64,000 bases of DNA from Heliomicrobium sp. (GCA_021155085.1 JAJNQA010000112.1:8378-72377), one strand, 5' to 3'. Numbered from the stretch's first letter, positions 1,696 through 62,280 are shown. A program made the numbers and translations. Notes: generated from the sequence alone by a model not told the origin.

Positions 1696-1701
1696 TCGGC
1701 G

Positions 1702-7850: not shown

Positions 7851-8492
7851 GTGATGAGCTTTATGGAAGACTGGCTGGACAAGCCATTGCGGCAGGTGCT
7901 GCCGGTAATGCAGCAACGAATCATGGAGCAGACGACTTACTTCGGCGTGACGGCGCTGAAAAACCCGCTTGATTTCTGGGTCTACCAGGAATTGATCTGC
8001 CAGCTCCGGCCTGATGTCATACTGGAAATCGGCAATCGCTGCGGCGGCGGCACGCTTGCCCTGGCTCACCTGTGCGACGCGCTGGGGAAAGGAAAGATTA
8101 TCGGCCTGGATATTACGCACGAACTGCTGGCTGACGCAGCCCGGCAGCATCCTCGGATTACCTGGATCGAAGGCGATGCCTGCGCATCCTATGAACGGGT
8201 CATCGAACTGATTGACGAGAATGACCAGGTGCTGATTATCGAAGACAGCGCGCATACATATGAAAATACCCTCAATGTGCTGCGCACTTACAGCCCCCTG
8301 GTTAAACCCGGCGGCTATTTCATCGTCGAAGACGGCATTTGCCATCACGGGCTGGATCTCGGCCCGCAACCCGGTCCATATGAAGCCACCGAAACTTTCA
8401 TTGCGGAAAACCCCGGCTTTGAAATTGACCGGGACAAGGAAAATTTCCTGATCACCTGGAACCCGAAAGGTTTTTTGCGGCGAGTGAAGTAA
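7851..8492 (+). CDS. Cephalosporin hydroxylase (CmcI)-family class I methyltransferase, i.e. a rhamnosyl O-methyltransferase-like protein
   Basis: YFGVTALKNPLDFWVYQELI...ILEIGNRCGGGTLALAH...IGLDIT is the hallmark of the CmcI fold. It is the last gene of the operon. Confidence 0.65.
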   Translation: MMSFMEDWLDKPLRQVLPVMQQRIMEQTTYFGVTALKNPLDFWVYQELICQLRPDVILEIGNRCGGGTLALAHLCDALGKGKIIGLDITHELLADAARQHPRITWIEGDACASYERVIELIDENDQVLIIEDSAHTYENTLNVLRTYSPLVKPGGYFIVEDGICHHGLDLGPQPGPYEATETFIAENPGFEIDRDKENFLITWNPKGFLRRVK

Positions 8493-8548
8493 TGGATTGA
8501 GTAAAGATGGAATCGCGGACAAAGTTGCCCGCGATTCCATCGCTCCCG

Positions 8549-11500
8549 TCAGGGCGCAAAGTAGCCAGACACGTCAATCACCAGATCGGTCGTCAATTGC
8601 GAGTAGATATTGAACGCGCCATCCGCCGCGCCCAACCCGACCGTGAAGTGGCGATTCAAGATCTGTCCGAAGCCGAAGTTTGAGGCCGCGACCAAAGGCT
8701 GCGGAACGCCGCTGGGCCAGAAAGTCAGATACCCGCCGTTCGCGTTGATGACAGTGGCGTTGCCGACAATGGCCAGCGCTGAATTCGCAATCACCACATT
8801 GTCACAAATACCGCGCGCCAACTGGAATCGGGTGCTTCCACCCACCAGTGGAAAGACAGGCGCAAAACAGCCTGTGAATCCCTGGCGTGTTTCCAATAAC
8901 CGCACCGGTCGCGGCAACGGATTAAACATCAGGCCGGCGCCATTGGCGTCGGTGGCATCCGGACTGAAATAGCCCAGCACATCTATCACCATGTCCGTCT
9001 GCGTGGTCGGAAAGATTTTGAATTCTCCCGACGCGGACAGCCCGACGGTGAAGGGAGCATTCATAATCTGGCCGGGCAGATAATTGGAACTTGCGGCAAG
9101 CGGCCGGGTGGCATCCGCTGGAAAGAGCGTCAGATATGGGAAGCCGGGTCCATTTGAGTTGACCGTCGTTCCATTGCCGACAATGGCCCGCGCCGTCGTT
9201 GGAATTGTGACGCCGTCACAGGTCAGCCGCGCCTGCTGCGTGGTTTCCACATTGCCTGGCAGCGGCGCGCCCGGCGCGTTACAGCCTGTGAATCCCGCGC
9301 GCGTTTCCAGCAATCGAATCGGCTTGGGCAGCGGATGAAAGTACAACCCGCCTGCTCCTGGCGGGGCGTAATAGCCTGTCACGTCAATGACAACGTGCGT
9401 CGCCGAAGTCACGAAAATATTGAATGCGCCATCTGAACTGCCCAGCCCAACAGTGAACACGTTGTTTAAAATTTCGTTCGGATTGTAGTTGGAGTTGGCA
9501 ACCAGCGGTTGCGCGGCCCCGCTGGGATAAAGCGTCAGATAGCCGCCGCCGGAATCCACCGTCGTGATGTTGCCGGTAATGGCCTGGGCGTTTGACGGAA
9601 TCGTCTGTCCACCACAGGTGCGGCGCGCCGTCTGCGTGCGTGAAGTGCCCGCGGAAATTGGCGCGCCAGGAGCGTCGCATCCCGTTTGCCCCGGGCGTGT
9701 GTCCAGCAGTCGAACCGGCGCGGCAAGCGGATAAAACAACAACCGGCTGACAACCAGCGAATAAGCGCGCGTGCCCGTGCAGCCATTGGCGTCTGTTATT
9801 TGAGCGTTGAAATTGAACGTGCCGGCGTCGGTTGGCATGCCGGAAAGCACTCCGCTGCTGCTTAATGACAGCCCGCCCGGCAGCGGGCCGTTGACGGAAA
9901 ACGTTACCGGCGCGATGCCGCCGGTTTGAGTCAGTGTTTGACTGTAGGCAGTGCTGACGGAAGCCGCGGGCAAAGTCGCCGGGTTGATCGTAATCACCGG
10001 GCAATTGATGGTCAGCGTGTAATTGCGGCTATCCGTGCAGCCGCTGGCGTCCACCACCGTTACCATGAAATTGAAATTTCCTGTTTGTGTCGGCGTCCCC
10101 GTCAGCGTGTCGCCTATCAGCATTAACCCTGCCGGAACCATGCCCGAAAGACTGTAATTGACGGGAGCCGCGCCGCCGGTTTGCGTGAAAGTTTGGCTGT
10201 AGGGAGTGTTGACGGTACCGGCATTCAGTGTGGGCGGAGTGATCGTGATATTGCCGCAGCCGTTGGCAACGCAACATATGGGCACTGAAGTGGTGATCGT
10301 CAAACTCCAACCGTTCAGCAGGTTTCCGACTTCTTCATCAGCGTCATCCACCACGTACAGCGACCAGTTGCCGTTGGGAACTCCGCCATTGAACACCGAC
10401 AAACGGGGATTTAGATATGGGCCGGCAGGTGCGGGCGAGGGGAAAATATCCGTCAGTCCGCCGTAATCGGCCGGACTGTAGGTGCCACTGGTAATTGCCG
10501 TCGCATCCGGGATGGGCACGCCGGAATCATCGAACGTGAGGAATCCGCCGGTGATGTCGGTGTTCCCTCCCGCGTCCGACATCAGAACCACGGCCTGGCC
10601 GGCCGGATTGACCAGGAGAATATCCACATCGTCGGGGAACGTGTGATTCACATTGTTCAGTGTGACGGTCACCTTGCTGATTGCGCCGTTCAGCCCTGAG
10701 ACATTGATCGCTGATGGATAAGGCGCCGCCGCGCCGGATGTCGCCGCCGGAGCGCCGCCTGGAATTGTGATCGAAGCATTGTTGGTAAACGTCGTCGTAT
10801 TTGTGATCGCCGCGCCCAGAGGAATGTTAAACGTGACCGAGCCTAAATTATTCGCGCCGTCCTGCAACGACAGTGTCGCCGCCAGCGTGCCGCCGCATAA
10901 TCCGCCCGCCGTAAAAGTAAATGGCATTGACGCCGATGCGCCGCCGGCAGGCAGCACGCCGTAGGTTTGCGAGGCGCTCGGATTGAGCACGCCACCGCCC
11001 GGTTGCAGCGTCGCAACCAAATTAGCGGTGCCCGCGGTGCCGACGTTCCGCAAGGTGAAATTGACCGTCACCGTTTCGCCCGGATCAACCGCGTTGTTGC
11101 CAGGAGCGCAACTTTCGGCAGTCACCGTTGAGCCAACGGTTTCGACCACCGGCAAAGGCGTCAACACGGCGTTGCTGACGACCAACGCAAAATCCTGATC
11201 AAGCGCTCCGCCGGAATTCGGCACGCCATCTCCGGCAATGCTGGCGGCGGTGATTTTGACGACGAAAGGCCCGGTCCCCCCTGCCGGGATAAAGACGCTC
11301 TCCGCATTATTACGAGGATCGGCAGCGCCACCCGTGACCGAAAGCGCGCCGCTGAAAACATTTCCCAAATAGGTCTGTCCGCCCACAGTCACTTCCAGAT
11401 TCAAGTTGTTGACCCAGGCATTGCCAACGGTCGAACCCGGCGCGTCTGACCAGGCCACGGTCACGCGGAACGGTTTGGTCGAATCGCTGATCATTCCCGC

Positions 11501-13741
11501 GTAAAGCCGTGTTTGCCCGGAAGCCGTGAACGTGTCCGGGGAAAGTTGATCGCGCAAAATCCCCGGCGTGGTCAGCACACTGAAGGCCGATGTCAGATTG
11601 ACCTCTCCCATGCCCTGCGCGTTCGACCATAGGTTGTCATTTGCTCCGGCGCCATTCAGATAACGCGCGGAATTCATCAGCACGGCTTTGGTCATGGCCG
11701 GGCTTGGCGGCGCTTGTCCCTGGTTAATGAATTGCTGCCGCACCAATGCCGCAGCGCCGGCAACTGCCGGCGTGGAATGGCTGGTGCCGGAAGAAGCAGT
11801 GTAAAACTGCTGCCCCCCTGGAAAGAAGACGCTGTTTGCGCCGCCGCAAACTCCGCCGCCGGTGTAACACGAACTCGGCTGTCCGTTGGCCGGCGACGAG
11901 GTTGAAAATTGCGGCACGCCGCCAGTGATGTGCGTGCCAGGCGCAACGATCTCAGGTTTCCTGCGCCCGTCAGTCGTCGGCCCGCGCCCGGAAAAATCCG
12001 CCATATCGTTGGCGTTGTTCGCGCCTGCATCGTCAATCTGGCAGGCATCCGTGCCGCCGATGGCCCGGACGTTTTCCGCCGCACCGACCGTGATGACGTT
12101 TTTCGCCGATCCCGGCGAGTTGACGGAATTGGAGCTGGGTCCCTGATTGCCGGCGGCAAAGACAATCACCATTTCCTGATTTCCGGCCTGCGGAAAGACT
12201 GCGCCGGCAGGCTGCGCGTCGCGGACAAGCGCGTCATAAGCCTGAGCGTCAATGTTGTACCCGCCATTGACGCTTGACCCCCAACTGTTGCTGCTGATGC
12301 GCGCGTTGTCGTTGTAGGCTTTCGATTCGACGTTCACCAGATTCGGAAACGTGTAGTTTCTGGGATCGAAAATGACCGTCGCACCGACTTTGACGAAGGG
12401 CGCGACTCCCAAACCGTACCGAAAGTTTCCGGCGTCAATGTGCGGGAAAGCGTTAAATGGGGAAAGGGAGGGGACAAATCCAGCCAGGATGTGCGCATTC
12501 AAATTCCCATGCCCATCACATCCCTGAACTGTGCTGTTGTTATTCGGCGTGCCTTCCAACCGGTTGTAAATAACACGGCTGGCATTCGCCGTATTGCCGC
12601 TGGTGTACAGCGCAAAGTGATTCGGCGTCGCCGTCCCATTATCAATGCCGCTGTCAGAGATGTTGACGGCAAAATTGGAAGCTGCGAATTGCGATTGCGT
12701 CAGGCCCTGCGCGTCCAGGTAATTCAGGTAATCTCCCGGCGAAGGCGAGCCGCCGTTCAGATTCCCGGCCATGATCACACTCTGCCGTTCGTCGGATTTC
12801 GTCGGCTCGACGTAGCGCATCACGGAAACGACATCCGAACGCAAAGCGATTTGCCGTTCAACCGCCGCAACCGGCAATTTCACGATCACATTGACGTAGT
12901 CCAGCACCGCAAATTGGCTGCGAATCGGCTCCGCTTTCAAATTGGTAATTGCCTGCAGCGTGGATTGATTCCCCTGTCCATCGGCAACCAACTGAACGGC
13001 AAAAAGTTCCTCTTTGCTCTCTCCGGCGGGCGAATTGTCGTTGCGGCGTTCGGCGTAAATGGCAGGATCAATCTTCAAGGCCGGATCGTATTCGCCGTCC
13101 CACTGAACGTAATCGGCGCGCGCCGTCCACTCCCGAAAGCGCGCCAGATTCCGGCCGCCGGCATAAATCAGATACGCGTTGTTCGGGATGTAAGCGACAA
13201 CCTTGACGCCGGTATTGCTTAACGCCTCGTGCCACTCCGGCTTGACGGGAGCGGCAAATTGAACCAGGTAAAGTGAATCTTCCCCGCGGGGATCACTGGC
13301 GCGCCGCCCCCGCTTCTGTTGTAACTCCGGACTCGTCGTATCCAGGGTTCCGGCATTGAGCAGTAGCAGATTATCTTCATCGCTGAGACTGACAGATTCA
13401 TTACCCGTCAGCGCCTGAGCCATCTTGTCGTCGGCGCTGAAAATGTGAAAAGCATCGTATTCGGCGATCAACCGGGCCCCGCGCCGTTTCAGTTCCGCGG
13501 CCAGTTGCGCATCCGCGACGCGCAGTTTGTGTTTACCGCTTGCACTGCGGTAACCAGTCCATTGCTGCGTGACCCGGGCCTGACTAGACGCCTGCCGCGG
13601 CTGTTGCCGCGCAGCGCGTGAAGAACTCTGCCATACCACAATAAATCCAAAGGCAATCGTCAAAGTCAGACTCAAAAAAAATACGGCACGAAGGCTGGAC
13701 CGGCGATGAACTAGGTTCGCGGGAAAGCGTGGAATCAGCAT
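8549..13741 (-). CDS. Giant secreted subtilisin-like (S8) serine peptidase (1730 aa) with a proprotein-convertase P-domain, Ig-like domains and a C-terminal triplicated unknown domain
   Basis: N-terminal signal anchor. Catalytic triad motifs DSGID, HGNLNAHILAG and GTSHSTP. P-domain (VTVTLNNVNHTFPDDVDILLVNPAGQ). Two Ig-like repeats (ITI.P.TL...YSQT.TQTGG). Three ~130-aa repeats fill the C-terminus. Confidence 0.85.
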   Translation of the reverse strand: MLIPRFPANLVHRRSSLRAVFFLSLTLTIAFGFIVVWQSSSRAARQQPRQASSQARVTQQWTGYRSASGKHKLRVADAQLAAELKRRGARLIAEYDAFHIFSADDKMAQALTGNESVSLSDEDNLLLLNAGTLDTTSPELQQKRGRRASDPRGEDSLYLVQFAAPVKPEWHEALSNTGVKVVAYIPNNAYLIYAGGRNLARFREWTARADYVQWDGEYDPALKIDPAIYAERRNDNSPAGESKEELFAVQLVADGQGNQSTLQAITNLKAEPIRSQFAVLDYVNVIVKLPVAAVERQIALRSDVVSVMRYVEPTKSDERQSVIMAGNLNGGSPSPGDYLNYLDAQGLTQSQFAASNFAVNISDSGIDNGTATPNHFALYTSGNTANASRVIYNRLEGTPNNNSTVQGCDGHGNLNAHILAGFVPSLSPFNAFPHIDAGNFRYGLGVAPFVKVGATVIFDPRNYTFPNLVNVESKAYNDNARISSNSWGSSVNGGYNIDAQAYDALVRDAQPAGAVFPQAGNQEMVIVFAAGNQGPSSNSVNSPGSAKNVITVGAAENVRAIGGTDACQIDDAGANNANDMADFSGRGPTTDGRRKPEIVAPGTHITGGVPQFSTSSPANGQPSSCYTGGGVCGGANSVFFPGGQQFYTASSGTSHSTPAVAGAAALVRQQFINQGQAPPSPAMTKAVLMNSARYLNGAGANDNLWSNAQGMGEVNLTSAFSVLTTPGILRDQLSPDTFTASGQTRLYAGMISDSTKPFRVTVAWSDAPGSTVGNAWVNNLNLEVTVGGQTYLGNVFSGALSVTGGAADPRNNAESVFIPAGGTGPFVVKITAASIAGDGVPNSGGALDQDFALVVSNAVLTPLPVVETVGSTVTAESCAPGNNAVDPGETVTVNFTLRNVGTAGTANLVATLQPGGGVLNPSASQTYGVLPAGGASASMPFTFTAGGLCGGTLAATLSLQDGANNLGSVTFNIPLGAAITNTTTFTNNASITIPGGAPAATSGAAAPYPSAINVSGLNGAISKVTVTLNNVNHTFPDDVDILLVNPAGQAVVLMSDAGGNTDITGGFLTFDDSGVPIPDATAITSGTYSPADYGGLTDIFPSPAPAGPYLNPRLSVFNGGVPNGNWSLYVVDDADEEVGNLLNGWSLTITTSVPICCVANGCGNITITPPTLNAGTVNTPYSQTFTQTGGAAPVNYSLSGMVPAGLMLIGDTLTGTPTQTGNFNFMVTVVDASGCTDSRNYTLTINCPVITINPATLPAASVSTAYSQTLTQTGGIAPVTFSVNGPLPGGLSLSSSGVLSGMPTDAGTFNFNAQITDANGCTGTRAYSLVVSRLLFYPLAAPVRLLDTRPGQTGCDAPGAPISAGTSRTQTARRTCGGQTIPSNAQAITGNITTVDSGGGYLTLYPSGAAQPLVANSNYNPNEILNNVFTVGLGSSDGAFNIFVTSATHVVIDVTGYYAPPGAGGLYFHPLPKPIRLLETRAGFTGCNAPGAPLPGNVETTQQARLTCDGVTIPTTARAIVGNGTTVNSNGPGFPYLTLFPADATRPLAASSNYLPGQIMNAPFTVGLSASGEFKIFPTTQTDMVIDVLGYFSPDATDANGAGLMFNPLPRPVRLLETRQGFTGCFAPVFPLVGGSTRFQLARGICDNVVIANSALAIVGNATVINANGGYLTFWPSGVPQPLVAASNFGFGQILNRHFTVGLGAADGAFNIYSQLTTDLVIDVSGYFAP
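8552..9742 (-). repeat. Intragenic tandem triplication, in three units of about 378, 417 and 396 nt, encoding the C-terminal repeated domain of the subtilase
   Basis: The protein repeats share a conserved motif (see the subtilase C-terminal triplication finding) and all three align along their length. Antisense ORFs at 8610 and 9084 mirror the periodicity. Confidence 0.75.
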
Positions 13742-33852: not shown

Positions 33853-34226
33853 GGTCGAATCTTCACTCCATTATTTGTGCTGCGACGAAAAAAACTCGCG
33901 CCACAGACCAAACCGCACTTGGAAACCCAAGGCAGCACTAAGTAACTGGTGGGAAGTTCGGGGCACTTTTTGTGGAACAAGATGCCATCTTGTCCCACAT
34001 TCGCGGCGCGAATTTTCCGCACCTTACTTAAAACGACAATTTGAGCGCGAATTGAATCTGGCGAGGTGTGTGGATTCCCGCCGTCGCGGTGATCTTACCG
34101 TAGTTCGCGTTTCCGAATGAAGTGTTCGGATGCACGAAAACCGTCTGATTCGGCAAATTGAAGGCTTCGATTGAATGCTTGAACCGGCCTGAGGCGCGGA
34201 CTATGATCCGCGCCGAAGAGGCTTTG

Positions 34227-37200
34227 ATGATCCCCAACAATTACGAACTCATCCAATACCTTCCGCTCAACGATTGGCAATGGTTTGCCCGTGGGCGGCG
34301 CATTTCCAGCGGCCAATCAGTGCTGCTCAAATCGCCACGCAGGGAAAGTCAGGGAGAAGGCGAACTGCTCGAACGCGAATTCGAATTGCTGCGCCAGCTT
34401 TCCGTGACGGGCATTCCCCGCCCGCTGGAGTTACTCGACACGGACAACGGCCTGTGCCTGGTGCTGGCTGACGGCGGCGTGCCGCTGCCGTCAGCCTTTC
34501 CGGCTGGCCGCCTGGAGTTGAAGACCTTTTTCAAACTCAGTCTTCAATTGGCGAACATTCTGGCCGAACTGCACCAGCGGGACATTATTCACCGAAACCT
34601 GAACCCGCGCGGCATTTTGCTGAATCCCGCAACCGGCGAAGTCTGTCTGGCGGATTTGAGCCTGGCGGTGCGCGCGGCGGATGAAATCCAGGAAGCGCTG
34701 CCAGCCCATCTGCTGCGCGGGATGCTCGCGTACGCTTCGCCGGAATTGACCGGAAGAATGAATCGCGCGGCGGATTACCGCACGGACTTTTATTCTCTGG
34801 GAATCACATTTTATGAATTGCTGACAGGCCGGTTGCCGTTTGATTTCACGGACCCGCTGGAATTGATTCACGCGCACATTGCCAAAACGCCGGAACCGCC
34901 CGCCAAAATTGATTCGCGGATTCCCGAACCGCTTTCCGAGATCATCATGAAGCTGCTGGCGAAAACCGCGGAGGATCGGTATCAAAGCGCACTCGGGTTG
35001 CGCGCCGACCTGGAAACCTGCGCCCGTGAATGGACCACGCGCGGACAAATCGAAGCATTCAAACTGGGCCGGCGCGATGTCCCGGATCGCTTCCTGATTC
35101 CACGGAAACTGTATGGCCGGGAGCGGGAAGTAGCGGAATTGCTCTCTGCGTTCGAGCAAACCTGCGAAGGCCGGACGTCAATGATGCTGGTGGCGGGTTA
35201 TTCCGGCATCGGCAAGACCTCGCTGATTCAGGAACTCTATAAACCCATTGTCCGCCAGCGCGGATATTTCCTTTCCGGCAAATTCGATCAGGTGGCGCGC
35301 AGCGTTCCCTTCGGCGCATTGATTCAGGCTTTTCGCGGTCTGGTGCGGCAACTGCTCGGCGAAAGCGAAGAGCAGCTCGCCCGCTGGCGCGCCCGATTGT
35401 CCGAAGCGCTGGGCTCAAACGGAGGCGCGCTGGCCGAGGTGATTCCGGAAATCGAACTGATCGTCGGCAAACAACCTTCGCCGCCCCGCGTCGGGCCGGC
35501 CGAAGCCTTGAATCGCTTTCAACTCATCTTTCAAAAATTTGTCTCCGCGATTGCCCAGCCCGGACGGCCGTTGGTGATCTTTCTAGATGACCTGCAGTGG
35601 GCGGACGCCGCAACCCTGAGCCTGCTTCAGCCTTTACTGTCCGGCGCTGACATTCAATCGCTTTTCCTGATGGGTGCATACCGCGACAACGAAGTGGATG
35701 CCGCTCATCCGCTAACGCGAACGCTGACTGCGCTGAAATTAGCGGGCGTTGAAGTACGCAGCATTTCTCCGGGGCCGTTACAGCTTCCCGAGCTGACGAA
35801 CTTCGTCACCGACACGTTGCGCTGTAAATTTGCGGAAGCTGCGCCACTGGCCCGGCTGGTTTGGGAAAAGACCGCCGGCAATCCGTTCTTCGTCATCCAG
35901 TTTCTGAAAACGCTCAAACAAGGAGATCTGCTGAAGTTCGATTATGAGCTTGGCCGCTGGACCTACCGCCTGGAAGACATCGTGAACGCGGGCGTCACCG
36001 ACAATGTCATCGCGCTGATGACGCAGAAGATTCAGCGGCTTTCCACCGAGGCGCAGCGCGCGTTGACGCTGGCCTCCTGCATTGGGAATTCCTTTGACCT
36101 GCCGACGCTGGTCATCGTCAGCGAACAATCGCCGGAAGACGCAGCGGAAGCGTTGAAAGAAGCAGTCGAGGAAGGATTGATCCTGCCGGTGGTAGAAGAA
36201 GACGGAGGGATGGGGCGACGGGGGGACGGGGGGACGGGGGGATCAGTGGAGATAGTAAAAGATGGAACAAATGATTTGTCTTTTTCGCCCCGTCGCCCCG
36301 TCCCCCCGTCCCCCCGTCCCAGTGCCTTCCCATCCCAATCCTACGCGTTCCTGCACGACCGCGTGCAGCAAGCCGCTTACGCACTGATTCCCGAAGAATG
36401 GAAGCAGCTTGTTCATTTGGCCGTCGGGCGATTGCTGCGCGACGGTTCCCCGCCGGAAGAACTCGAAGAAAAACTGTTCGACATCGTTCATCACCTGAAT
36501 CTGGGCAGCGGTTTGATTGTCGAAGCGTCTGAACGGCTGGCGCTCGCCCGCCTGAACCTGAACGCGGGACGGAAAGCGAAATCGTCAACGGCTTATGAAT
36601 CGGCGCGGGAGTATTTTCAGGCGGGCGCGGCGCTGCTCGGCGAAGAGCATTGGGCAACCGAGTACGAACTGGTTTTCGCGCTGCAACTGGAACTGGCCGA
36701 ATCCTTGCGCCTGTGCGCAGAGTTCATTGAAGCGGAAGCCGCGTGCGAACCTCTGCTGCGGCGCGCGCGGACCAAACTGGATCAAGCCCATGTTCACAAC
36801 CTGCACATTCTTCAATACGAAAATCAGTCGCGATATGCGGACGCGATGGTCAGCGCGCGCCGCTGCCTGCCGCTTTTCGGCGTCGCGTTTCCTGATTCCG
36901 CTGATGAACAAGAGTCCGCGCTGGAACGCGAGATTGCGACGATTCAGTTTTTGCTGGATGACCGCCCGATTGCCGCGCTGATCGAACTGCCGCTGATGAC
37001 CGATCCGGAAATCAAGATGGTTATGAACCTGCTGACGACGATCTGGTCATCGGCGTATATCTCCGGCCAGCAGGCGCTGACCCGGCTGATTTCCGCCACC
37101 ATGGTGCGCCTGTCGCTGATTCACGGGAATGTGGAAGAGTCCGCCTACGGTTATGTCACGCACGCGATTACCGTCGGCCCGGAGCGCGCGGATTACAAAT

Positions 37201-40200
37201 CAGCTTATGAATTCGGTTTGCTGGCGCTGCGGCTGAACGAACGGTTCAACGATTCGCGGCTGCGCGCCAAAATTTACCAGCAGTTTCAGGCGCACGTCAT
37301 GCCGTGGCGGCAACCGCTCGAAACCTGTCTGACTTATGCGCGAAAGGCGAGCCGCAGCGGATTTGAGAGCGGCGATTTTGCTTATGGGATTTATGGCGCG
37401 TTCACCGAAACCTGGACGGCCCTGGTCATTGCGCAAGACCTGGGCAAGTTCGTGCTCGAATATTCGCCCAATGTGGCGCTGTTCAAAAAGCTGAAAGCCG
37501 AGGCCATCGCCGATGGTCAGCAAATCCTGCTGAACTGGGCGCGCGCCCTGCGTGGCGAAACCAATGCGCCGCTGTCGCTATCGGACAAAAACTTCGATGA
37601 AGCGGAATACGTCCGGCGTTATCGCGGCAATCCGTTTTACACGATGTTTTTCGCGGCGGCGAAACTGCACCTCAGTTACCTGCTGGGGGAATACAAGCAG
37701 GCGCTGGAAGCTGCCCGGCAGGCGCGCGAAATCGTCCATCACCTGTCCGGAACCATCTGGACGGTTTTCTTCGATTTCTGGAATGGCCTGACCCTGGCCG
37801 CAAATTACGCGGAAGCTTCGGGAGAAGAACAAACGAAGCACCTTCTGGAATTGAAACGCGCGCGAAATTCACTGGCACTGCTGGCGGAAAACTGCCCGGA
37901 AAATTTCCGCTGCCAGTCACTGCTGCTTTCGGCGGAATGCGAGCGCATCGCCGGTCAGGAAAATCAGGCAGCCAACTTGTACGAGCGCGCCATCCGCCAG
38001 ACTGAAGAAACAAACGCCATCCAGTATCGTGCCCTGGCCAACGAGCTTTACGCGCGGTTTCAAACAGTGGCCGGGCAGGAAACCGCCTTGGCTCCGCTGC
38101 TGGCTGAAGCCCAGGCTTGTTACGGACGATGGGGCGCGGCAGCCAAAGTGGACCAGTTGAATCAACAATCTCCCGGGTGGGACAGGCTTCAGTCTGTCTT
38201 CAGCCGCGAAGGAAGCGTACGAACTGAAATCCGTTCCACAGCGGACGCAGGCGCGCTTGATCTCTTCAGCGTTGTAAAAGCCTCTCAGGCCATCGCCAGC
38301 GAAATGGAATTGGAGCGATTGCTGGCCCAACTGATGCGCATTGCCATTGAAAACGCCGGCGCGGAGCGTGGCTGTTTGCTGCTGGAACGCGGCGGCGACT
38401 GGTTCGTTCAGGCGGAAGGCTCCGTGAACGATGCGGAGGTGACGTTGCACGATGCATTGCCGCTCGGCGAATCCGCGAACCTGTCTTTAAGCATCGTCAA
38501 CTATGTCCGCCGAACTTCGGAGGGCGTCGTTCTGACGGAAGCGGCAAGCGACGACGGTTACGGCAACGATCCCTACATCGCGCGCTGTCAGCCGCGTTCG
38601 GTGATGTGCGCGCCCGTGCTGCGTCAGGGCCGCTTGATCGGCGCGCTGTATCTGGAAAACAACATCGCCGGCGGCGCCTTCACCGAAGCCCGCATTCAGA
38701 TCATTCAACTCCTGGCCGCGCAGGCTGCGATTTCTCTGGAAAACGCCCGGCTGTATCGCGAAATGCAACTGGCGGAATCCACGCTGCGCTCGGTGATGGA
38801 AGGCACTGCGGCAATGACCGGCGAGGATTTTTTCCGTTCAATGGTGCGGCATCTGGCCGCCGCCATTCCAGTCAAAATCGCCTTCGTCACGGAATGCGCC
38901 AACGTCCAGAAGACCCGCGCGCGAATGCTGGCTTTCTGCGACGGCAAGGGCCTGGCCGAAAATTTCGAGTACGACGTCAAGCACACCACCTGCGAAAAAG
39001 TCTACGAAGGCCACACCTGCACCTACGCCAGCGACATCCAGAAACTGTTTCCCGAAGAACCGGCGCTGCTGGAATTGGACGGGCAGAGTTACATCGGCCT
39101 GCCGCTGCACAGTAAAGCCGGGGAACTGATCGGCCATCTGGCGGTGATTGACGACAAGCCGATGGATCAGGGGCGCAGCAGTTCTATTCTGGACGTTTTG
39201 AAAATTTTCGCCGCCCGCGCCAGCGTCGAACTGGAACGCACGAAGGCCGAAGCCGAATTGCGTCTGGCCATGCAAGAAATCGAAAGGCTGAAGAACCGGT
39301 TGCATGCAGAAAACCTTTACCTGCAGGAAGAAATTCGCCGCGAACACAATTTCGAGGAAATCGTCGGCGGCAGTCCCGCCCTGCTGGAAGTGCTGCAACA
39401 GGTCGAGCGCATGGCGCCCACCGATGCCACGGTGTTGATTCTGGGCGAAACCGGAACCGGCAAGGAATTGATCGCCCGCGCCATTCACGACCGCAGCCCG
39501 CGCCATTCGCGCCCGCTGGTCAAGGTGAATTGCGGCGCGATTTCCGCCGGACTGGTCGAAAGCGAACTCTTCGGCCACGTCAAAGGCGCATTCACCGGCG
39601 CGCTCGATAAACGCACCGGAAGGTTTGAACTGGCCGATGGCGGCACATTGTTTCTGGATGAAGTCGGCGAACTGCCGCTGGAAACGCAGGTCAAACTGCT
39701 GCGCGCCCTGCAGGAAGGCGAATTCGAGCCAGTCGGCAGCAGCAAAACCATCAAAGTCAATGTCCGAATCATTGCCGCCACCAACCGCAATCTGGAAGAC
39801 GAGGTCAAAGCCGGACGCTTTCGCGCCGATTTGTTTTACCGCCTGAATGTGCTGCCGCTGCACAATCCGCCGCTGCGGGAGCGCCGCGCGGATATTCCGC
39901 AACTGGCAATGTTCTTTCTGTCGCGTTTTGCACGGCGGTTCGGCAGATCAATCAACGGCATTTCGCAGGAAACCATGGAACGGCTGATGAATTACAACTG
40001 GCCGGGCAACATCCGCGAACTGCAAAACCTGATTGAACGCGGCGTGGTGCTCAGCAACGGTTCGGCGCTGACGATTGACCGCAACCTGCTGCCCGCCGCG
40101 CAGACAACCGAAATCCAGCCTAAATCCGCAATCCAAAATGAAGTTCCGCCGGCAGTTCCCATTTCGCTGGATGACTTGCAACGCCAACATATTCTCAATG

Positions 40201-40322
40201 CCCTGGCGCAAGCCAACTGGGTGATCGAAGGTGAAAACGGTGCCGCCAAGCTGCTCAATTTGCATCCGAACACGCTGCGCAGCCGATTGAAAAAAATGGG
40301 AATTCAGCGTCCCAAACTTTAA
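34227..40322 (+). CDS. Giant (~2030-aa) signalling protein: Ser/Thr protein kinase - AAA_16/STAND ATPase - helical (TPR-like) region - 2x GAF - sigma-54 interaction AAA+ domain - Fis-type HTH
   Basis: Kinase motifs ([20 protein letters not shown]). Walker [16 protein letters not shown] domains around aa 1370-1700. bEBP motifs [14 protein letters not shown] and ESELFGH. C-terminal [15 protein letters not shown]. Start is at 34203 or 34227 (AAGAGG ribosome-binding site before 34227); the ORF track start is 34158. Confidence 0.85.
36212..36320. repeat. In-frame 109-bp palindromic insert inside the giant gene. A G4-motif arm and a mirrored C-rich arm flank a 46-bp AT-rich spacer.
   Basis: 36212-36241 GGGGCGACGGGGGGACGGGGGGACGGGGGGG (four or more G-runs). 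36288-36320 CCCCGTCGCCCCGTCCCCCCGTCCCCCCGTCCC. The spacer GC is about 30 %. Translation is [12 protein letters not shown]...[12 protein letters not shown], a low-complexity linker. Confidence 0.7.
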
Positions 40323-56623: not shown

Positions 56624-57466
56624 TTATTCAGCCGATCCCGTTGATCTTGCGGCGTGGCGAAAGGCGTTTGGTGTCATCCCCGTCGCTTCCCGGAATATTT
56701 TGGTGAAATGGCTCTGGCTGCCGTAGCCGACCTGTGCGCCCACTTCAGTAATCGGCAGATCGCTTTCCGCCAGCAAGCGCCGCGCGCGTTCGATCCGTAA
56801 TCCGGCCAAAAAGCCGTGCGGCGTTGAGCCGGTAATCTTTTTGAACAACCGGGCGAAGTGGAATTCGCTGAGGTAAGCCGCCGCCGCGATTTCCGACAGC
56901 GACAATTCCCGCCCGCAGTTGTCGTGCATGAATTCAATCGCCCGGCGCAACCGCCGGTCAACAACGCCGACGCGGGAAAGTTCGATTTCGTCCGAAGGCT
57001 GCACATTGATATGCGCCCGCAACAGGTAAACCGACAATTGATTGATGTGGGAACGAATGACTTCGCGCCAGCCTGCCGCGCTGCTTTCCATTTCACCGGC
57101 AATCGCTTCCAGCACGCCGCGCAGTTTCCTGTCGCCGGATACGGAAGTCAGCGGCAGACGAAAAAGCAGATTCGCGCCGCGGCGATTCAGCCGCAGTCTG
57201 GTGGCCGTTTCAATCAATAACGCCGGCGCAATGCGCACCAGCAAGAACTCATTTTGTTTTTGATTGAGAGAGAGCCGCGCGGTTTGATTTGGATTGATGA
57301 ACAGGCTCGTCCCCGTAATGTAATCTGGATTTTGCGATTTCAGAAAATGCAGGACCAGAAAGTCTGGCACCGGCGCCAATTCAAATTCAGATCGGGCAAA
57401 TTCGCGCCCGGCAACAATACGGTGTTCAATTGAAAAACCTGGTTCGATGAAAAGATGGGGAGTCAT
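56624..57466 (-). CDS. AraC/XylS-family transcriptional regulator
   Basis: C-terminal double HTH LSEIAAAAYLSEFHFARLFKKITGSTPHGFLAGLRIERARRLL...VGYGSQSHFTKIFREATGMTP. Confidence 0.8.
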   Translation of the reverse strand: MTPHLFIEPGFSIEHRIVAGREFARSEFELAPVPDFLVLHFLKSQNPDYITGTSLFINPNQTARLSLNQKQNEFLLVRIAPALLIETATRLRLNRRGANLLFRLPLTSVSGDRKLRGVLEAIAGEMESSAAGWREVIRSHINQLSVYLLRAHINVQPSDEIELSRVGVVDRRLRRAIEFMHDNCGRELSLSEIAAAAYLSEFHFARLFKKITGSTPHGFLAGLRIERARRLLAESDLPITEVGAQVGYGSQSHFTKIFREATGMTPNAFRHAARSTGSAE

Positions 57467-57690
57467 AAAAATAGAATATGCCCGGCACTGACATCGCGGA
57501 GTTACAGACAGAGATTCGTATTATCCACGTTCCCCTGCCATCTGAAATGGTGAACTTCGGCTCTATTTTTCAAATGGCAGAGCTGCCCCCCCTTGTTTGT
57601 AAGGCGCGAAACATGTAAAGTTCAGTCCTCCCTAGAATTCAAAAAAATACCCTAAACCACTCATCACAAATTTTCGGAGTAGTTTTATTG

Positions 57691-59523
57691 ATGAGCAGAC
57701 CAAAAGCTCGCCTGCGGCCGGAGATCAAGGAATTCCCCAAAACTTCAACAGGCAACAATGGCTTGGATGAGATTACCAGCGGAGGTTTGCCCCAGGGGCG
57801 GCCGACGCTGGTTTGTGGCGGAGCCGGATGCGGAAAAACACTTTTCGCCATGCAGTTTCTGTTGAAGGGCGCGCTGGAATATGACGAACCTGGCGTGTTT
57901 ATGGCCTTTGAAGAAACGGCGGAAGAACTCGCGCAAAATGTCTCGTCGCTCGGATTCGATCTTGAGGACCTGATTCAACAAAAGCAGATCGTAGTTGATC
58001 ACGTGCATCTGGATCGCCGCGAGATTCACGAAACCGGAGAGTTCGATCTGGACGGACTGTTTGTCCGGCTCAATTACGCAATTGACGCAATTGGAGCCAG
58101 GCGCGTGGTGCTGGATACCATCGAGACGCTTTTCAGCGACCTGCCCAACGAGACGACACTCCGCGCCGAATTGCGCAGGCTTTTCCGATGGCTGAAAGAC
58201 AAGGGCGTGACCGCCATCATCACAGCCGAACGCGGCAGCGGGACGCTGACGCGTTACGGGTTGGAAGAATACGTTTCCGATTGCGTCATCCTGCTGGATC
58301 ATCGTGTGGAAAACCAGCTTTCCACACGCCGAATTCGCGTCATTAAGTATCGCGGCTCCACCCACGGCACGAACGAATATCCGTTCCTGATTGATAACGA
58401 CGGCATTTCCGTCCTGCCAATCACGTCGCTGGGTTTGTCGCACCAGGCAGTGTCGGAGCGGATTTCGACCGGTGTTGAGCAGTTGGACGAAATGCTCGAA
58501 GGGAAAGGCTATTTTCGTGGCAGCAGCGTGCTGATCTCCGGCACCTCCGGCACGGGCAAAACCAGCCTGGCCGCGCTGTTTGCCGCCGCCACCTGCCAGC
58601 GTGGAGAGCGTTGCCTGTATCTGGCCCTGGAAGAATCGCCGAGCCAGGTGATGCGCAACATGCGCTCCATTGGCGTGGATTTGGATCACTGGGTGAAAAA
58701 AGGACTGTTGCGATTTCAGGCGGCCCGTCCGACTGCATACGGCCTGGAAATGCATCTGGCGATTGTGCATAAAACCATCAATGATTTTGCACCGCGCGTC
58801 GTTGTCGTTGACCCGGTGACGAATCTGATGTCGGTCGGCAATGTGGATGAAGTCAAAGCCATGCTGACCCGGCTGATTGATTTTATGAAAGGGCGGCAGA
58901 TTACAGGGCTTTTCACCAGTCTGACTGACAGTGAAGGCGAGCAGGAAAGGACGGATGTCGGTATCTCTTCATTGATGGACACCTGGATTCTGCTGCAAAT
59001 GATCGAAAGCAACGGGGAACGCAACCGCGGGCTGTACGTGCTCAAGGCCCGCGGGATGGCGCACTCCAATCAGATTCGAGAATACAAGATGTCGCGTCAG
59101 GGAATTGAATTGGTTGAAGCTTATCTCGGTTCGGCCGGTGTGCTGACGGGTGCGGCGCGGCTGGCACAAGAGGCCAGGGAGAAAGCCGAGGCGCTCAATT
59201 ATCAACAGGAAATAGAACGAAAACGCCGCGAGTTGGAACGCAAACGGAAAGCGCTGGAGGCACAGATTGCTCTCTTGCGGGCGGAGTTTGAATCCGAGGC
59301 GGAAAACCTGCTCAGACTGGGCCAGCAAGAGTCGGAGCGGGAAGAAATGATCGGGCGCGCACGGTCGGAAATGGCGCGCATTCGCTATGCAGCTCCCCCG
59401 CAAAACATTACGCAAGGAGAATCTGATGGCATCCTCAACCAAAAAGGTGAGCGCAAAAAAGCGGACAAAAACCACTCTTCCGGGCGGCCTTCAAACGGCC
59501 GTTCAAACAGACGTCCAAAATGA
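57691..59523 (+). CDS. kaiC: KaiC homologue (double RecA-like ATPase) with a ~90-aa C-terminal coiled-coil extension
   Basis: CI Walker A GGAGCGKT and CII Walker A GTSGTGKT. Phosphosite-region [14 protein letters not shown]-terminal [28 protein letters not shown] coiled coil. ATG at 57691. Confidence 0.9.
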
Positions 59524-59800
59524 TGAAATCTGGCGATTACGGCTGTATGTCGCCGGACAAACGCCCAAATGTTTGAAAGCATTCGCCAACCTGAAACAGA
59601 TTTGCGAAGACCACCTGGCAGGCAAGTATCAAATCGAACTGATTGATTTGCTGGTCAATCCCCAACTGGCCCGGGGCGATCAAATCCTGGCCATCCCCAC
59701 CTTGGTTAGAAAGCTGCCGGAACCGGTCCGGAAAATCATCGGCGACCTCTCCGACGCCGAGCGCGTACTGGTCGGACTTGACCTCCGGCCGATTCAATAA
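59426..59800 (+). CDS. kaiB: KaiB homologue (copy 1, with an N-terminal Lys-rich extension)
   Basis: [26 protein letters not shown]...[31 protein letters not shown] ribosome-binding site. Overlaps the kaiC 3' end by 98 bp in another frame. Confidence 0.85.
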
Positions 59801-59824
59801 ACGCTCCCCGGCCAAGGACCTTGT

Positions 59825-60169
59825 ATGGCGACGATGAACACATCACAAGAAACTCTCGCCGACTTTGAAGAGTCATTGGAAAAGTCGAAAAATGAGATGT
59901 ACGTGCTGCGGCTGTACGTCAGCGGCGCTTCTCCGAAGTCCTCGCGCGCGATCCTGAACGTCAAGAAAATGTGCGAAAAACGCCTGGCGGGCCGCTACGA
60001 ACTGCAAGTAATTGACGTTTATCAAAAAACCACGCTCGCCGTCGGCGAGCAAATCATTGCCGTCCCCACACTCATCAAAAAGTTGCCCGAACCTTTACAG
60101 AAACTGATTGGGGACATGTCCAACGTCGAACAGGTGTTGCTGGGCATGGATTTGCTTCCCAAAGCCTAG
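59825..60169 (+). CDS. kaiB: KaiB homologue (copy 2)
   Basis: YVLRLYVSGASPKSSRAILNVKKMCE...IIAVPTLIKKLPEPLQKLIGDMSN. Confidence 0.85.
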   Translation: MATMNTSQETLADFEESLEKSKNEMYVLRLYVSGASPKSSRAILNVKKMCEKRLAGRYELQVIDVYQKTTLAVGEQIIAVPTLIKKLPEPLQKLIGDMSNVEQVLLGMDLLPKA

Positions 60170-60180
60170 AGAAGAAGCAC

Positions 60181-62280
60181 ATGAGCAGAGTCGAGACGTC
60201 GCCAATGCCGCGACCAGGGTATGAAGAGCTTGAAGCGCGGCTGTTGGAAGCCGAAGAAACATTGCGAGCCATCCGTTCCGGGGAAATTGATGCGCTCGTC
60301 GTCTCAGGACCGGAAGGCGAGCAGATTTACACGCTGAAGACGGCGGAGCATCCTTACCGCGTCCTGGTCGAAGCGATGAATGAGGGAGCCGTCACGCTCA
60401 ACCAGGACAGCACGATCCTCTATTCCAATCAGAGCTTCGCCAATCTTCTTAAAATTTCGTCCGAACGGGTTCTCGGCTCTACATTCAGCCAATTCGTCGC
60501 TCCCGCCGACCGGTTGCGGCTGGAGGCCCTGCTCTGTCAGTGTGCGAATAAAGCGGCAAAGGGCGAGATCACACTGGTCTGCGGAGACGGTAGCGAGGTC
60601 CCGGCGCACCTTTCCTTAAGCCCGCTCCCTTCGGAAGAAGTGCAAAGTGTCAGCGTCGTGGTCACCGATCTGACCGAGCAAAAGCGGCAGCAGGAACTGG
60701 TTGCGTCGGAAAAACTGCTGCGCTCCATCCTGGAGCAGGCGGCGGAGGCGACGGTGGTTTGCAATGAATACGGAATCATCATTCACGCCAGCCGCAGAGC
60801 CTATGAGCTTTGCGGCTGCAATCCGGTGCTGCATTCTTTTGATGAGGTGTTGCCACTATGCACCTCCTCGCCGGAGAGCGAATCCAGGCGGGAGAGCCTT
60901 TCCTTCTCAGCCATTGTCGAGAGCAAGGAATTGCAGGGAATGGAAGCGGTTTTTGATCGCGCTGATGGCCAGGTCATCAATCTGTTGCTGAGCGCGGGAC
61001 TGGTCCTGGACTTCCAGGGAAAAATGCTCGGCTGCGTCGTCACCATGCGGGACATCACACGGCGCAAGGAGGCGGAGGCGGAGCGCGAGCGGATGCTGAT
61101 GCGCGAGCAAACACTTCGCATCAAGGCCGAAGAAGCGAGCCGCCTGAAGGACGAATTCCTGGCCGTCGTTTCGCACGAACTGAAGACGCCGCTGAACGCC
61201 ATCTACGGCTGGGCCGAAATGCTGCGCGGCGGCCTGCTCTCTGCCGCGCAGGGGCAGCAGGCCATCGAAACCGTTGCCCGCAACGCAAAGGCGCAGGGTC
61301 AGATTATTGATGATCTGCTCGATGTATCGCGAATCATTACGGGCAAGATGCGGCTCAACACGAAGAGCCTTTCACTGGCCAATGTCATTGAGGCTGCCGT
61401 CGAAACCGTCCGTCACGCTGCTGAAGCCAAAAAAATCCGGCTCGAAGTAACTACCGATCCTGAATTGGGACCGGTGATGGGCGACGTTGACCGCCTGCAA
61501 CAAATCGTCTGGAACCTGCTTTCGAATGCGATCAAGTTCACCCCCAAAGGCGGCCTGGTGCTGATCAAAACCATTCAGGTGGGTTCCCAGGTCGAAATTA
61601 ACATCAGCGACAATGGCCAGGGCATCAAACCCAATTTTCTGCCTTATGTTTTCGACCGCTTCCGGCAGGAGGACGCAACGACCAAAAGGCAGCACGGCGG
61701 TTTGGGTTTGGGCCTGGCGATCGTGCGCCAACTGGTGGAATTGCATGGCGGAACGGTGCATGTCGAGAGCGCCGGAGAAGGACAAGGCGCGACCTTCACC
61801 ATCTCGCTGCCGGTGCCTGGGAAAAACTCCGGCGCGCTTCATCGAGTTGACAGACTGAATGGGAAAAGTGTTGCCCCTGCCCTATCCGAGACCCTGGCCG
61901 GAATCATTTCGGGAATTCGTGTGCTGTTGGTGGACGACGAACTGGACACGCTCGTGCTCACCGCCCTGATCCTGGAAAGAGGCGGCGCGGAGGTCAGGAC
62001 GGCAGACAACGCCGCCGAAGGCTATCTCTTGTTTTCTGAATGGAAGCCCGATGTCATCGTCTCGGACATCGGCATGGCGCACGAAGACGGCTATGACTTT
62101 CTACGCCGTGTGCGAGAGCAGGACAAAATCGTTCCGGCCGTGGCGCTGACGGCTTATACGCGCACCGAAGATCGCATCCATGCATTTTCAGCCGGCTTCC
62201 AGATGCACGTTTCCAAGCCGGTTGAGCCGAAGGAACTGCTGACGGTGGTCGCCAGTCTGACCACCCTCAACAAAAAATAA
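60181..62280 (+). CDS. Hybrid sensor histidine kinase (coiled-coil - 2x PAS - HisKA - HATPase_c - C-terminal REC)
   Basis: H-box VVSHELKTPLNAI. G-boxes DNGQGI and GGLGLGLAIV. Receiver LLVDDE...DVIVSDIGMA...K. 12 bp downstream of kaiB-2. Confidence 0.85.
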   Translation: MSRVETSPMPRPGYEELEARLLEAEETLRAIRSGEIDALVVSGPEGEQIYTLKTAEHPYRVLVEAMNEGAVTLNQDSTILYSNQSFANLLKISSERVLGSTFSQFVAPADRLRLEALLCQCANKAAKGEITLVCGDGSEVPAHLSLSPLPSEEVQSVSVVVTDLTEQKRQQELVASEKLLRSILEQAAEATVVCNEYGIIIHASRRAYELCGCNPVLHSFDEVLPLCTSSPESESRRESLSFSAIVESKELQGMEAVFDRADGQVINLLLSAGLVLDFQGKMLGCVVTMRDITRRKEAEAERERMLMREQTLRIKAEEASRLKDEFLAVVSHELKTPLNAIYGWAEMLRGGLLSAAQGQQAIETVARNAKAQGQIIDDLLDVSRIITGKMRLNTKSLSLANVIEAAVETVRHAAEAKKIRLEVTTDPELGPVMGDVDRLQQIVWNLLSNAIKFTPKGGLVLIKTIQVGSQVEINISDNGQGIKPNFLPYVFDRFRQEDATTKRQHGGLGLGLAIVRQLVELHGGTVHVESAGEGQGATFTISLPVPGKNSGALHRVDRLNGKSVAPALSETLAGIISGIRVLLVDDELDTLVLTALILERGGAEVRTADNAAEGYLLFSEWKPDVIVSDIGMAHEDGYDFLRRVREQDKIVPAVALTAYTRTEDRIHAFSAGFQMHVSKPVEPKELLTVVASLTTLNKK

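Follow-up and report, generated by a model that had tools for sequence, protein, structure and literature searches.

A predicted KaiA-independent kai operon with two separately conserved KaiB families

Introduction

As a rule, signalling genes lie downstream of kaiC-kaiB clusters outside the cyanobacteria (PMC3164672). We describe here a kaiC-kaiB-kaiB-histidine kinase locus on a 64,000-nucleotide (nt) stretch of DNA deposited as Heliomicrobium sp. (GCA_021155085.1, JAJNQA010000112.1:8378-72377), hereafter the window, whose numbering is used for all its coordinates. The closest described systems are those of two purple bacteria. In Rhodopseudomonas palustris, a kaiC-kaiB-PAS/histidine kinase operon provides a fitness benefit in light/dark cycles without a sustained free-running rhythm (Ma et al. 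2016, PMC4794148). In Rhodobacter sphaeroides, a C-terminal extension of KaiC forms a 12-helix bundle linking two hexamers, the A-loop is kept exposed, allowing autophosphorylation without KaiA, and dephosphorylation is driven jointly by KaiB binding and a falling ATP/ADP ratio (Pitsawong et al. 2023, PMC10076222). The same extension marks a large, mainly kaiC2-type clade with a Ser-Ser phosphosite (PMC10076222). Both the kaiC-kaiB-PAS/histidine kinase operon (PMC4794148) and the extended KaiC with its mechanism (PMC10076222) had therefore been published before this work.

The origin of biological clocks is modelled chiefly on Kai systems that lack KaiA. To our knowledge, their mechanism is understood only through R. 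sphaeroides, an organism with a single KaiB. The present locus is a typical example of a variant of this known kind of system that has been little described, and it is this variant, not the particular window, that deserves attention. Our reading, to which we assign a probability of about 0.7, is that the locus is a single operon encoding a KaiA-independent KaiBC timer with a KaiC2-type KaiC, like those of R. sphaeroides and R. palustris, and with a full and apparently ancestral set of two KaiBs; its source is probably a Blastocatellia-like acidobacterium. Within our sample, a second KaiB family, conserved in its own right, is present in most close relatives, which are spread over bacteria and one or more archaeal lineages, and it has been fused to the first more than once; if this pattern holds more widely, the "primordial clock" model is short of one component. 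Our literature search found no account of a conserved two-family kaiB pair, of tandem or paralogous kaiB genes beside kaiC, or of alpha-beta fusions; most subscription journals lay outside that search, which makes this an absence of evidence only.

Results

Comparison with described Kai systems

The open reading frame (ORF) map showed four genes packed head to tail, all on the plus strand:

57691-59523, plus strand: kaiC, 610 amino acids (aa) from ATG 57691 or 611 aa from TTG 57688
59426-59800, plus strand: kaiB1, alpha-type KaiB, 124 aa, starting within kaiC in the +1 frame
59426-59523, plus strand: kaiC/kaiB1 overlap, 98 nt
59825-60169, plus strand: kaiB2, beta-type KaiB, 114 aa
60181-62280, plus strand: hybrid sensor histidine kinase, 699 aa, PAS-PAS-HisKA-HATPase_c-receiver by Pfam

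Throughout, alpha denotes the KaiB encoded at position 1 and beta the KaiB encoded at position 2. An earlier reading of the window made from the sequence alone (the sequence-only reading) had proposed a KaiA-less kaiC-kaiB-kaiB-hybrid histidine kinase cluster. The cluster itself was borne out by these four ORFs at the expected places; the lack of KaiA stands for the 64-kb window, where no KaiA domain was detected among 47 ORFs of at least 100 aa. The order kaiC, kaiB, PAS histidine kinase on one strand with short gaps is that of the purple-bacterial operons, with one extra kaiB.

The R. sphaeroides KD131 operon (plasmid pRSKD131A; 8DBA, 8FWI and 8FWJ), which was inspected directly, consists of kaiC, a single kaiB and an HWE kinase gene. 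The window locus resembles it in the KaiC domains, Ser-Ser phosphosite and C-terminal coil (57% identity by tblastn), in a KaiB1 that groups with the R. sphaeroides KaiB in the alpha clade (64% identity), in gene order, in a kinase whose N-terminal PAS module is homologous (31% identity across 302 aa) and, within the 64 kb of the window, in showing no KaiA. It differs in encoding two KaiBs, the alpha one with a basic N-terminal extension of 35 aa, whereas the only KaiB of R. sphaeroides has 89 aa and no extension. Further differences are a KaiC with about 40 more residues, whose gene overlaps kaiB1, and a kinase core of HisKA plus receiver instead of the HWE type. In addition, both window KaiBs retain the G-x-D residues of cyanobacterial KaiB, which are implicated in fold switching, where R. 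sphaeroides KaiB has N-x-K.

The R. palustris operon follows the same KaiA-free logic; compared by its description and not by sequence, it has a single kaiB. The cyanobacterial KaiABC oscillator operates with SasA and CikA. Its KaiC (approximately 354 bits against the window KaiC) and KaiB (80-97 bits) are homologous to those encoded here, and it likewise couples a histidine kinase to Kai proteins, but the window shows no KaiA and its KaiC carries the coil.

KaiB1 and KaiB2 represent two conserved families

Tandem kaiB genes beside one kaiC had been considered uncommon in the sequence-only reading, which is wrong for this KaiC subfamily. In 85 non-redundant related loci, two kaiB genes followed kaiC in 53, one in 26 and none in 6, with the reservation that 80 of these loci came from a one-genome-per-species scan (KaiC 58-70% identical to the window KaiC) and, being those most similar to it, are not an unbiased census. 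Seven loci with fewer than two kaiB genes had under 1 kb of sequence downstream of kaiC. The best match in the scan was a metagenome-assembled genome (MAG) of the Pyrinomonadaceae, and paired loci span Acidobacteriota, Bacteroidota, Planctomycetota, Verrucomicrobiota, Proteobacteria, Nitrospirota, Chloroflexota and the archaeal Methanoperedens. All of the nearest KaiC relatives had the order kaiC-kaiB-kaiB-PAS kinase, except one locus (L009) in which the second kaiB was lost. Two kaiB genes were also annotated by the Prokaryotic Genome Annotation Pipeline (PGAP) on a plasmid of a cultured Pararhizobium.

When the KaiBs of these loci were compared, every first-position KaiB (53/53) had as its nearest neighbour in another locus a first-position or solo KaiB, and 50 of the 53 second-position KaiBs had a nearest neighbour holding the same position. 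A distance tree (neighbour-joining, 93 columns) placed the 53 second-position KaiBs and six solo KaiBs on one side of a split, and all first-position KaiBs, 20 solo KaiBs, the R. sphaeroides KaiB and the cyanobacterial KaiBs on the other. Of 100 bootstrap replicates, 76 separated the 106 paired KaiBs perfectly, and at most four KaiBs were misplaced in any replicate. With the root on cyanobacterial KaiB, alpha and beta formed reciprocally monophyletic sister clades. Judged by sequence, KaiB1 and KaiB2 are an ancient paralogue pair, that is, two separately conserved families and not the outcome of a local duplication.

Both proteins are KaiBs by domain content (PF07689: KaiB1 89.4 bits, KaiB2 82.2 bits; cutoff 27), although both remain under the cutoff of 110 of the NCBIfam KaiB equivalog (106.6 and 89.8, respectively), which would give them the NCBI name "KaiB family protein". 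They are 51% identical to each other. The best match of both in the PDB was R. sphaeroides KaiB (109 bits for KaiB1, 83 bits for KaiB2), whereas the Legionella KaiB Lpp1115 reached 59 and 52 bits. The KaiB1 core is 87-90% identical to its orthologues. Invariant columns numbered 38 in the alpha family and 18 in the beta family, and eight positions held different residues that were at least 80% conserved within each family, six of them from column 127 of the joint alignment onward, in the C-terminal half. Among the fixed differences were W36/Y26, I70/L60, D85/E75, V94-R95/I84-K85 and L108/M98 (alpha/beta), and the pair Y66-Q67 was specific to beta. KaiB2 also carries an N-terminal helix motif, F-E-x-x-L, at residues 14-18 (DFEESL), about 12 residues ahead of the first strand; its F and E were conserved in 82% and 89% of 80 homologues. 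AlphaFold2 (AF2) with family-specific alignments yielded low-confidence models (predicted local distance difference test scores of 61 for KaiB1 and 49 for KaiB2), both with a ground-state-like order of strands and helices, and placed a low-confidence helix at KaiB2 residues 7-20. Such low confidence fits metamorphic proteins, without separating alpha from beta.

Only alpha was found in 20 loci and only beta in six. Because the alpha-only loci, including R. sphaeroides, are nested within the alpha clade of this 93-column distance tree, loss of beta is the simplest reading, and R. sphaeroides apparently carries alpha alone after such a loss. In L009, whose KaiC is 70% identical to the window KaiC, approximately 400 nt of non-coding DNA (8089-8496) lie between kaiB-alpha and the kinase gene, where kaiB-beta would be expected; this looks like a recent loss of beta.

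For the Synechocystis-type cyanobacterial KaiC2-KaiB2 pair, a comparison is offered by a MAG of the Leptolyngbyaceae (L020), in which an extended KaiC is followed by a beta-type KaiB. Unlike the window, this locus keeps only beta intact. Between its extended kaiC and the intact kaiB (2314-2620), we observed out-of-frame fragments (PTVMRKLP..., ...IIGDLFDTKRVLLGIYLR) that are similar to an alpha KaiB in its C-terminal half and look like a decayed alpha gene. The arrangement hints that the cyanobacterial KaiC2-associated KaiB is of the beta type. By inference from L020, and not from the Synechocystis sequence itself, KaiB2 of Synechocystis would be a beta.

Natural alpha-beta fusions

The search with KaiB1 retrieved proteins of 202-203 aa (P0243-P0245) composed of an alpha domain, a linker of about 10 residues and a beta domain. 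P0243 and P0245 occurred in six independent samples, three each. Where contigs were long enough (L092-L094), the fusion gene lay between kaiC and the PAS kinase gene; the contigs bearing P0243 measured just 1.1-1.3 kb. The fusion genes are as follows:

L092, 5001-5609: alpha-beta fusion gene
L093, 3766-4374: alpha-beta fusion gene
L094: alpha-beta fusion gene
L095-L097: alpha-beta fusion genes

An exhaustive search with P0245 added further clean alpha-to-beta fusions with differing linker lengths (P0361, P0364 and P0365). Other two-domain matches (P0363, P0367, P0369, P0370, P0375, P0404, P0440 and P0461) were rejected as gene-call run-throughs with one garbled domain. In the fusions, beta has lost its N-terminal helix. 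Repeated fusion in genomic order is classical evidence for proteins that work in one complex. Taken with the conserved pairing, the repeated fusions argue that the two KaiBs probably act together on KaiC, and the paired and fused forms are simple constructs for testing the role of the second KaiB.

The kaiC genes upstream of the fusions in L092 and L093 were called at only 510 aa, which suggests KaiCs without the coiled-coil extension.

KaiC is predicted to be a KaiC2-type protein with a coiled-coil extension

The window KaiC contains two KaiC/ATPase (RecA-like) domains (PF06745, 387 bits, E 3.6e-116) and scored 768 bits against the NCBIfam equivalog NF006799 (cutoff 408). Its database twin P0001 begins at ATG 57691. 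Two Walker A motifs (GGAGCGKT, residues 43-50, and GTSGTGKT, residues 284-291), two catalytic Glu-Glu pairs (74-75 and 314-315) and Ser426-Ser427 were all invariant in 22 homologues. Ser426-Ser427 aligned with S413/S414 of R. sphaeroides KaiC and is the predicted phosphosite pair. The best PDB match was R. sphaeroides KaiC (8DBA, 681 bits), whose alignment ran over query residues 18-554 and covered the coil.

Residues ~486-566 (about 80 aa) form a heptad-rich segment poor in Pro and Gly: between 488 and 566 there was no Pro and just three Gly, and the hydrophobic fraction at the a and d positions was 0.50-0.75 in windows starting at 485-555. After a Pro-Pro break, a basic tail of 42 aa rich in Gly, Ser and Asn follows (residues 569-610), with a composition that suggests disorder. 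The 8DBA alignment shows the C-terminal segment to be a homologue of the coiled coil by which two KaiC hexamers are linked in R. sphaeroides, and the protein is assigned to the KaiC2 type and the R. sphaeroides coiled-coil clade, for which an extension of at least about 50 aa is expected. A database search found thousands of extended relatives of 570-620 aa in Acidobacteria, Planctomycetes, Bacteroidota, Methanoperedens and others; together with the published kaiC2 clade, these make the extended KaiC one of a known kind.

Most of what the sequence-only reading had said of KaiC was thus upheld: both Walker A sites and the phosphosite motif are present, and the extension is homologous to the purple-bacterial coiled coil. 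Its proposed refutation, a frameshift creating the KaiC tail, fails, since the tail motif QG..D.I..QK..RKK recurs in KaiCs at 68-77% identity.

kaiB1 starts inside kaiC

The Lys-rich KaiB1 N-terminus and the overlap of about 100 bp reported earlier are real and conserved in relatives. The longest kaiB1 ORF opens at 59387, and the likely start is ATG 59426, located 6 nt past an AAGGAG sequence. Apart from GTG 59447, no in-frame ATG, GTG or TTG was found before the first beta-strand, so a start inside kaiC is obligatory. A start 3' of the kaiC stop was ruled out, as no canonical start codon is present there. The DNA of the overlap is A-rich and encodes the basic KaiC tail and the basic KaiB1 N-terminus at once; in the kaiC frame, the ribosome-binding site of kaiB1 reads Gln-Gly-Glu. 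Three-frame translations showed that AAGGAG, the ATG and the basic KaiB1 N-terminus (M-x-S-P-T-K-K...) are kept in four related loci. In locus L004, kaiC stops earlier, ahead of the kaiB1 ATG, with the kaiB1 extension intact, which indicates that the kaiB frame is the one always kept. A programmed frameshift yielding a KaiC-KaiB1 fusion was rejected, given that kaiB1 has its own conserved Shine-Dalgarno sequence and ATG and that kaiC of L004 ends before that ATG. No significant RNA structure hiding the kaiB1 start was detected (z = -0.62).

Across 72 loci, the alpha N-terminal extension, with a median of about 24 aa, was basic more often than acidic, and the last 25 aa of KaiC were basic in 57. 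The kaiC/kaiB junction in other loci was usually a 4-nt ATGA overlap; long overlaps of ~55-100 nt were found mostly in acidobacterial relatives. A start inside kaiC would probably tie KaiB-alpha synthesis to kaiC translation.

The conserved overlap explains the occasional loss of kaiB-alpha in automatic annotation, which would bias genome surveys of clock genes. Other assemblies contain the identical 124-aa KaiB1 as a called protein (P0241). Gene callers omitted kaiB1 in three contigs of the same species and chose an antisense ORF of 86 aa instead. In a Blastocatellia MAG (P0247), PGAP annotated a 99% identical KaiB-alpha as a 90-aa protein starting with MWRLRLYV. The corresponding codon in the window is ATC (Ile), which leaves two readings of the annotation: an ATG at this place in the MAG, or use of a non-canonical start.

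In the window itself, an antisense ORF of 92 aa lies opposite kaiB1 (59537-59815, minus strand). It had no Pfam match and is almost certainly spurious.

The hybrid histidine kinase

The kinase has an intact H-box (SHELKTP) and a canonical receiver, with the DD pair, the acceptor Asp (VSDIGM), Thr (ALTAY) and Lys (SKP). Its N-terminus comprises an LxEAEETLxAIRxGExDALVV segment followed by PAS, and the first 160-170 aa were 38-50% identical in most related loci. Such comparisons indicate that the kai genes are accompanied by the N-terminal module, with a variable output end. PAS proteins unrelated to Kai are known to have similar segments at their N-termini, and for this reason we do not read the module as a Kai-binding domain. 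Pfam detected neither a KaiB-like (SasA-type) domain nor a GAF domain in the kinase, and the match to the SasA model PRK09303 spans the kinase core only. The SasA/CikA analogy drawn in the sequence-only reading consequently holds for operon position and not for architecture: as predicted from its domains, the kinase is neither SasA-like, with no KaiB-like N-domain, nor CikA-like, with no GAF and a canonical receiver in place of a pseudo-receiver. In SasA, the KaiB-like N-domain is thioredoxin-like and binds KaiC, and in CikA the pseudo-receiver lacks the phospho-acceptor Asp. In the related loci, the occurrence and type of the kinase N-terminal module showed no link to whether beta was present.

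Operon structure and flanking genes

Besides the 98-nt overlap, the junctions are a gap of 24 nt between kaiB1 and kaiB2 and one of 11 nt between kaiB2 and the kinase gene. Two features lie on the 5' side:

57467-57690, no strand: intergenic region between kaiC and the AraC-family gene, presumed promoter and 5' untranslated region (UTR) of kaiC
56624-57466, minus strand: AraC-family regulator (Pfam HTH_18/HTH_AraC), divergent neighbour

On the 3' side, a gene for a Gfo/Idh/MocA oxidoreductase converges on the cluster, and these two flanking genes bound the four-gene unit. A terminator scan found no plus-strand terminator-like sites inside the operon, a sigma-70 consensus scan of the operon and of 57467-57690 gave nothing beyond shuffled expectation, and an Rfam scan of the entire 64-kb window gave no match. 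The shared strand, the short junctions and the lack of an internal terminator fit one predicted transcript. The identical gene arrangement was recovered at 99-100% identity in three independently assembled contigs of the same species from other samples, which excludes an assembly accident.

The AraC-family gene was upstream only in the same-species contigs, and relatives had other genes there. The regulator is best regarded as a neighbour, and its membership in the system is putative only. Within the intergenic region, a 13-nt inverted repeat was observed at 57535-57547 and 57568-57580 (CTGCCATCTGAAA and TTTCAAATGGCAG; 20-nt spacer, 92% complementary), which could be an operator or a 5'-UTR hairpin.

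Discussion

By analogy with R. sphaeroides, KaiC would assemble via its coil and, with the A-loop exposed, would autophosphorylate on the Ser-Ser pair without KaiA. KaiB would bind the CI ring of phosphorylated KaiC and speed dephosphorylation as ATP/ADP falls, and this dependence would make the system an environment-reset hourglass. The fusions and the conserved pairing suggest that alpha and beta would act as one heteromeric KaiB unit on KaiC, not as alternatives, for example side by side on the CI ring or paired in a heterodimer away from KaiC. The hybrid kinase would link the state of KaiC to a phosphorelay, or would feed a PAS-sensed signal into it. A bolder version, which we consider improbable, holds that an obligate alpha/beta heteromer is the ancestral state of KaiA-less timers, that the single-KaiB systems of R. 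sphaeroides and R. palustris are reduced derivatives and that beta is regulatory. If so, beta could hold alpha in an inactive hetero-complex or set the delay of CI-ring binding, and in some of these systems the beta step could allow oscillation or timing beyond a one-KaiB hourglass.

Several points weigh against a two-KaiB timer. We know of no need for a day/night timer in Acidobacteria, and Kai homologues of Legionella and Pseudomonas have been linked to stress resistance. The prevalence of pairs was measured on loci chosen by similarity to the window KaiC. Alpha and beta can apparently each work alone, given the loci with a single family, and the low-confidence AF2 models showed no difference in fold state between them. 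In the R. sphaeroides complex, moreover, neighbouring KaiBs do not touch (PMC10076222), which means that the solved structure does not in itself call for a ring of alternating alpha and beta.

The most serious competitor concerns physiology: the same parts might serve as an energy-state or stress-response switch and not as a daily timer, a role that has been proposed for KaiC homologues of Legionella and Pseudomonas. This is possible, though we lean against it. The host seems to be a non-phototrophic acidobacterium, as judged from the Pyrinomonadaceae best match and the 99% identical Blastocatellia KaiB, the R. sphaeroides KaiBC system is itself ATP/ADP-driven (PMC10076222), and a passage of PMC10808063 cites a stress role for Legionella kai. 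Yet KaiC is much closer to R. sphaeroides KaiC, and both KaiBs are much closer to R. sphaeroides KaiB than to Lpp1115; a switch, besides, is a physiological role and not a molecular mechanism, and as such is compatible with the KaiA-independent two-KaiB system that we favour. A different proposal makes KaiB-beta a free-standing output adaptor, comparable to the KaiB-like N-domain of SasA, which would bind the CI ring and recruit the PAS kinase, possibly via the F-E-x-x-L helix. The proximity of kaiB2 to the kinase gene, the conserved and family-specific helix motif and a weak match of KaiB2, but not of KaiB1, to the N-terminal part of PRK09303 (E 2.6e-6) speak for it. That match is far under the cutoff (27 versus 342 bits), however, and the natural fusions tie a beta stripped of its N-terminal helix to alpha and not to the kinase. 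The same kinase family also follows kaiB where beta is lacking (L009, L053, L056 and R. sphaeroides), and its occurrence with or without beta weakens the adaptor idea, which we regard as doubtful.

It is less likely still that the two KaiBs are alternatives for different conditions, differing in affinity, fold-switch kinetics or expression and tuning the timer to temperature, redox or energy. The eight family-differentiating positions with the beta-specific Tyr66-Gln67, the loci with alpha or beta alone and the cyanobacterial locus that kept beta beside a decayed alpha would agree with such a division of labour. Against this, independent expression is unlikely for two genes 24 nt apart in one operon, the repeated fusions force 1:1 co-expression, and AF2 predicted no fold difference. 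The day/night- or redox-differentiated sequestration suggested by the sequence-only reading is unsupported, with no KaiA in the window to sequester. As to whether the KaiC tail or kaiB1 is an artefact of a frameshift, a sequencing error or a pseudogene, the omission of kaiB1 by gene callers in favour of an antisense ORF in three same-species contigs and the 90-aa PGAP version (P0247) could raise such a suspicion. Four independent assemblies agree, however, the KaiC tail is kept as protein in relatives, and the KaiB1 core is close to that of its orthologues and shares the 38 invariant alpha columns. The conserved Shine-Dalgarno sequence and ATG, with no start 3' of the kaiC stop, point the same way. 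Conservation and agreeing assemblies refute an artefact at the level of sequence, and we give it almost no weight.

Other genes of the window

Two further regions were recorded outside the kai locus. At 34158-40322 (plus strand), a single ORF of 2054 aa encodes a Ser/Thr protein kinase together with a STAND-type AAA_16 NTPase, GAF, a sigma-54 activator AAA+ domain and a Fis-type helix-turn-helix. It is followed on its 3' side by genes for a STAS protein and an ECF-type sigma factor, with a second sigma-54 response regulator on the opposite strand. At 8549-13741 (minus strand), a subtilase of 1730 aa with a proprotein-convertase P-domain and He_PIG immunoglobulin-like repeats adjoins a glycosyltransferase/methyltransferase gene cluster (10-7841).

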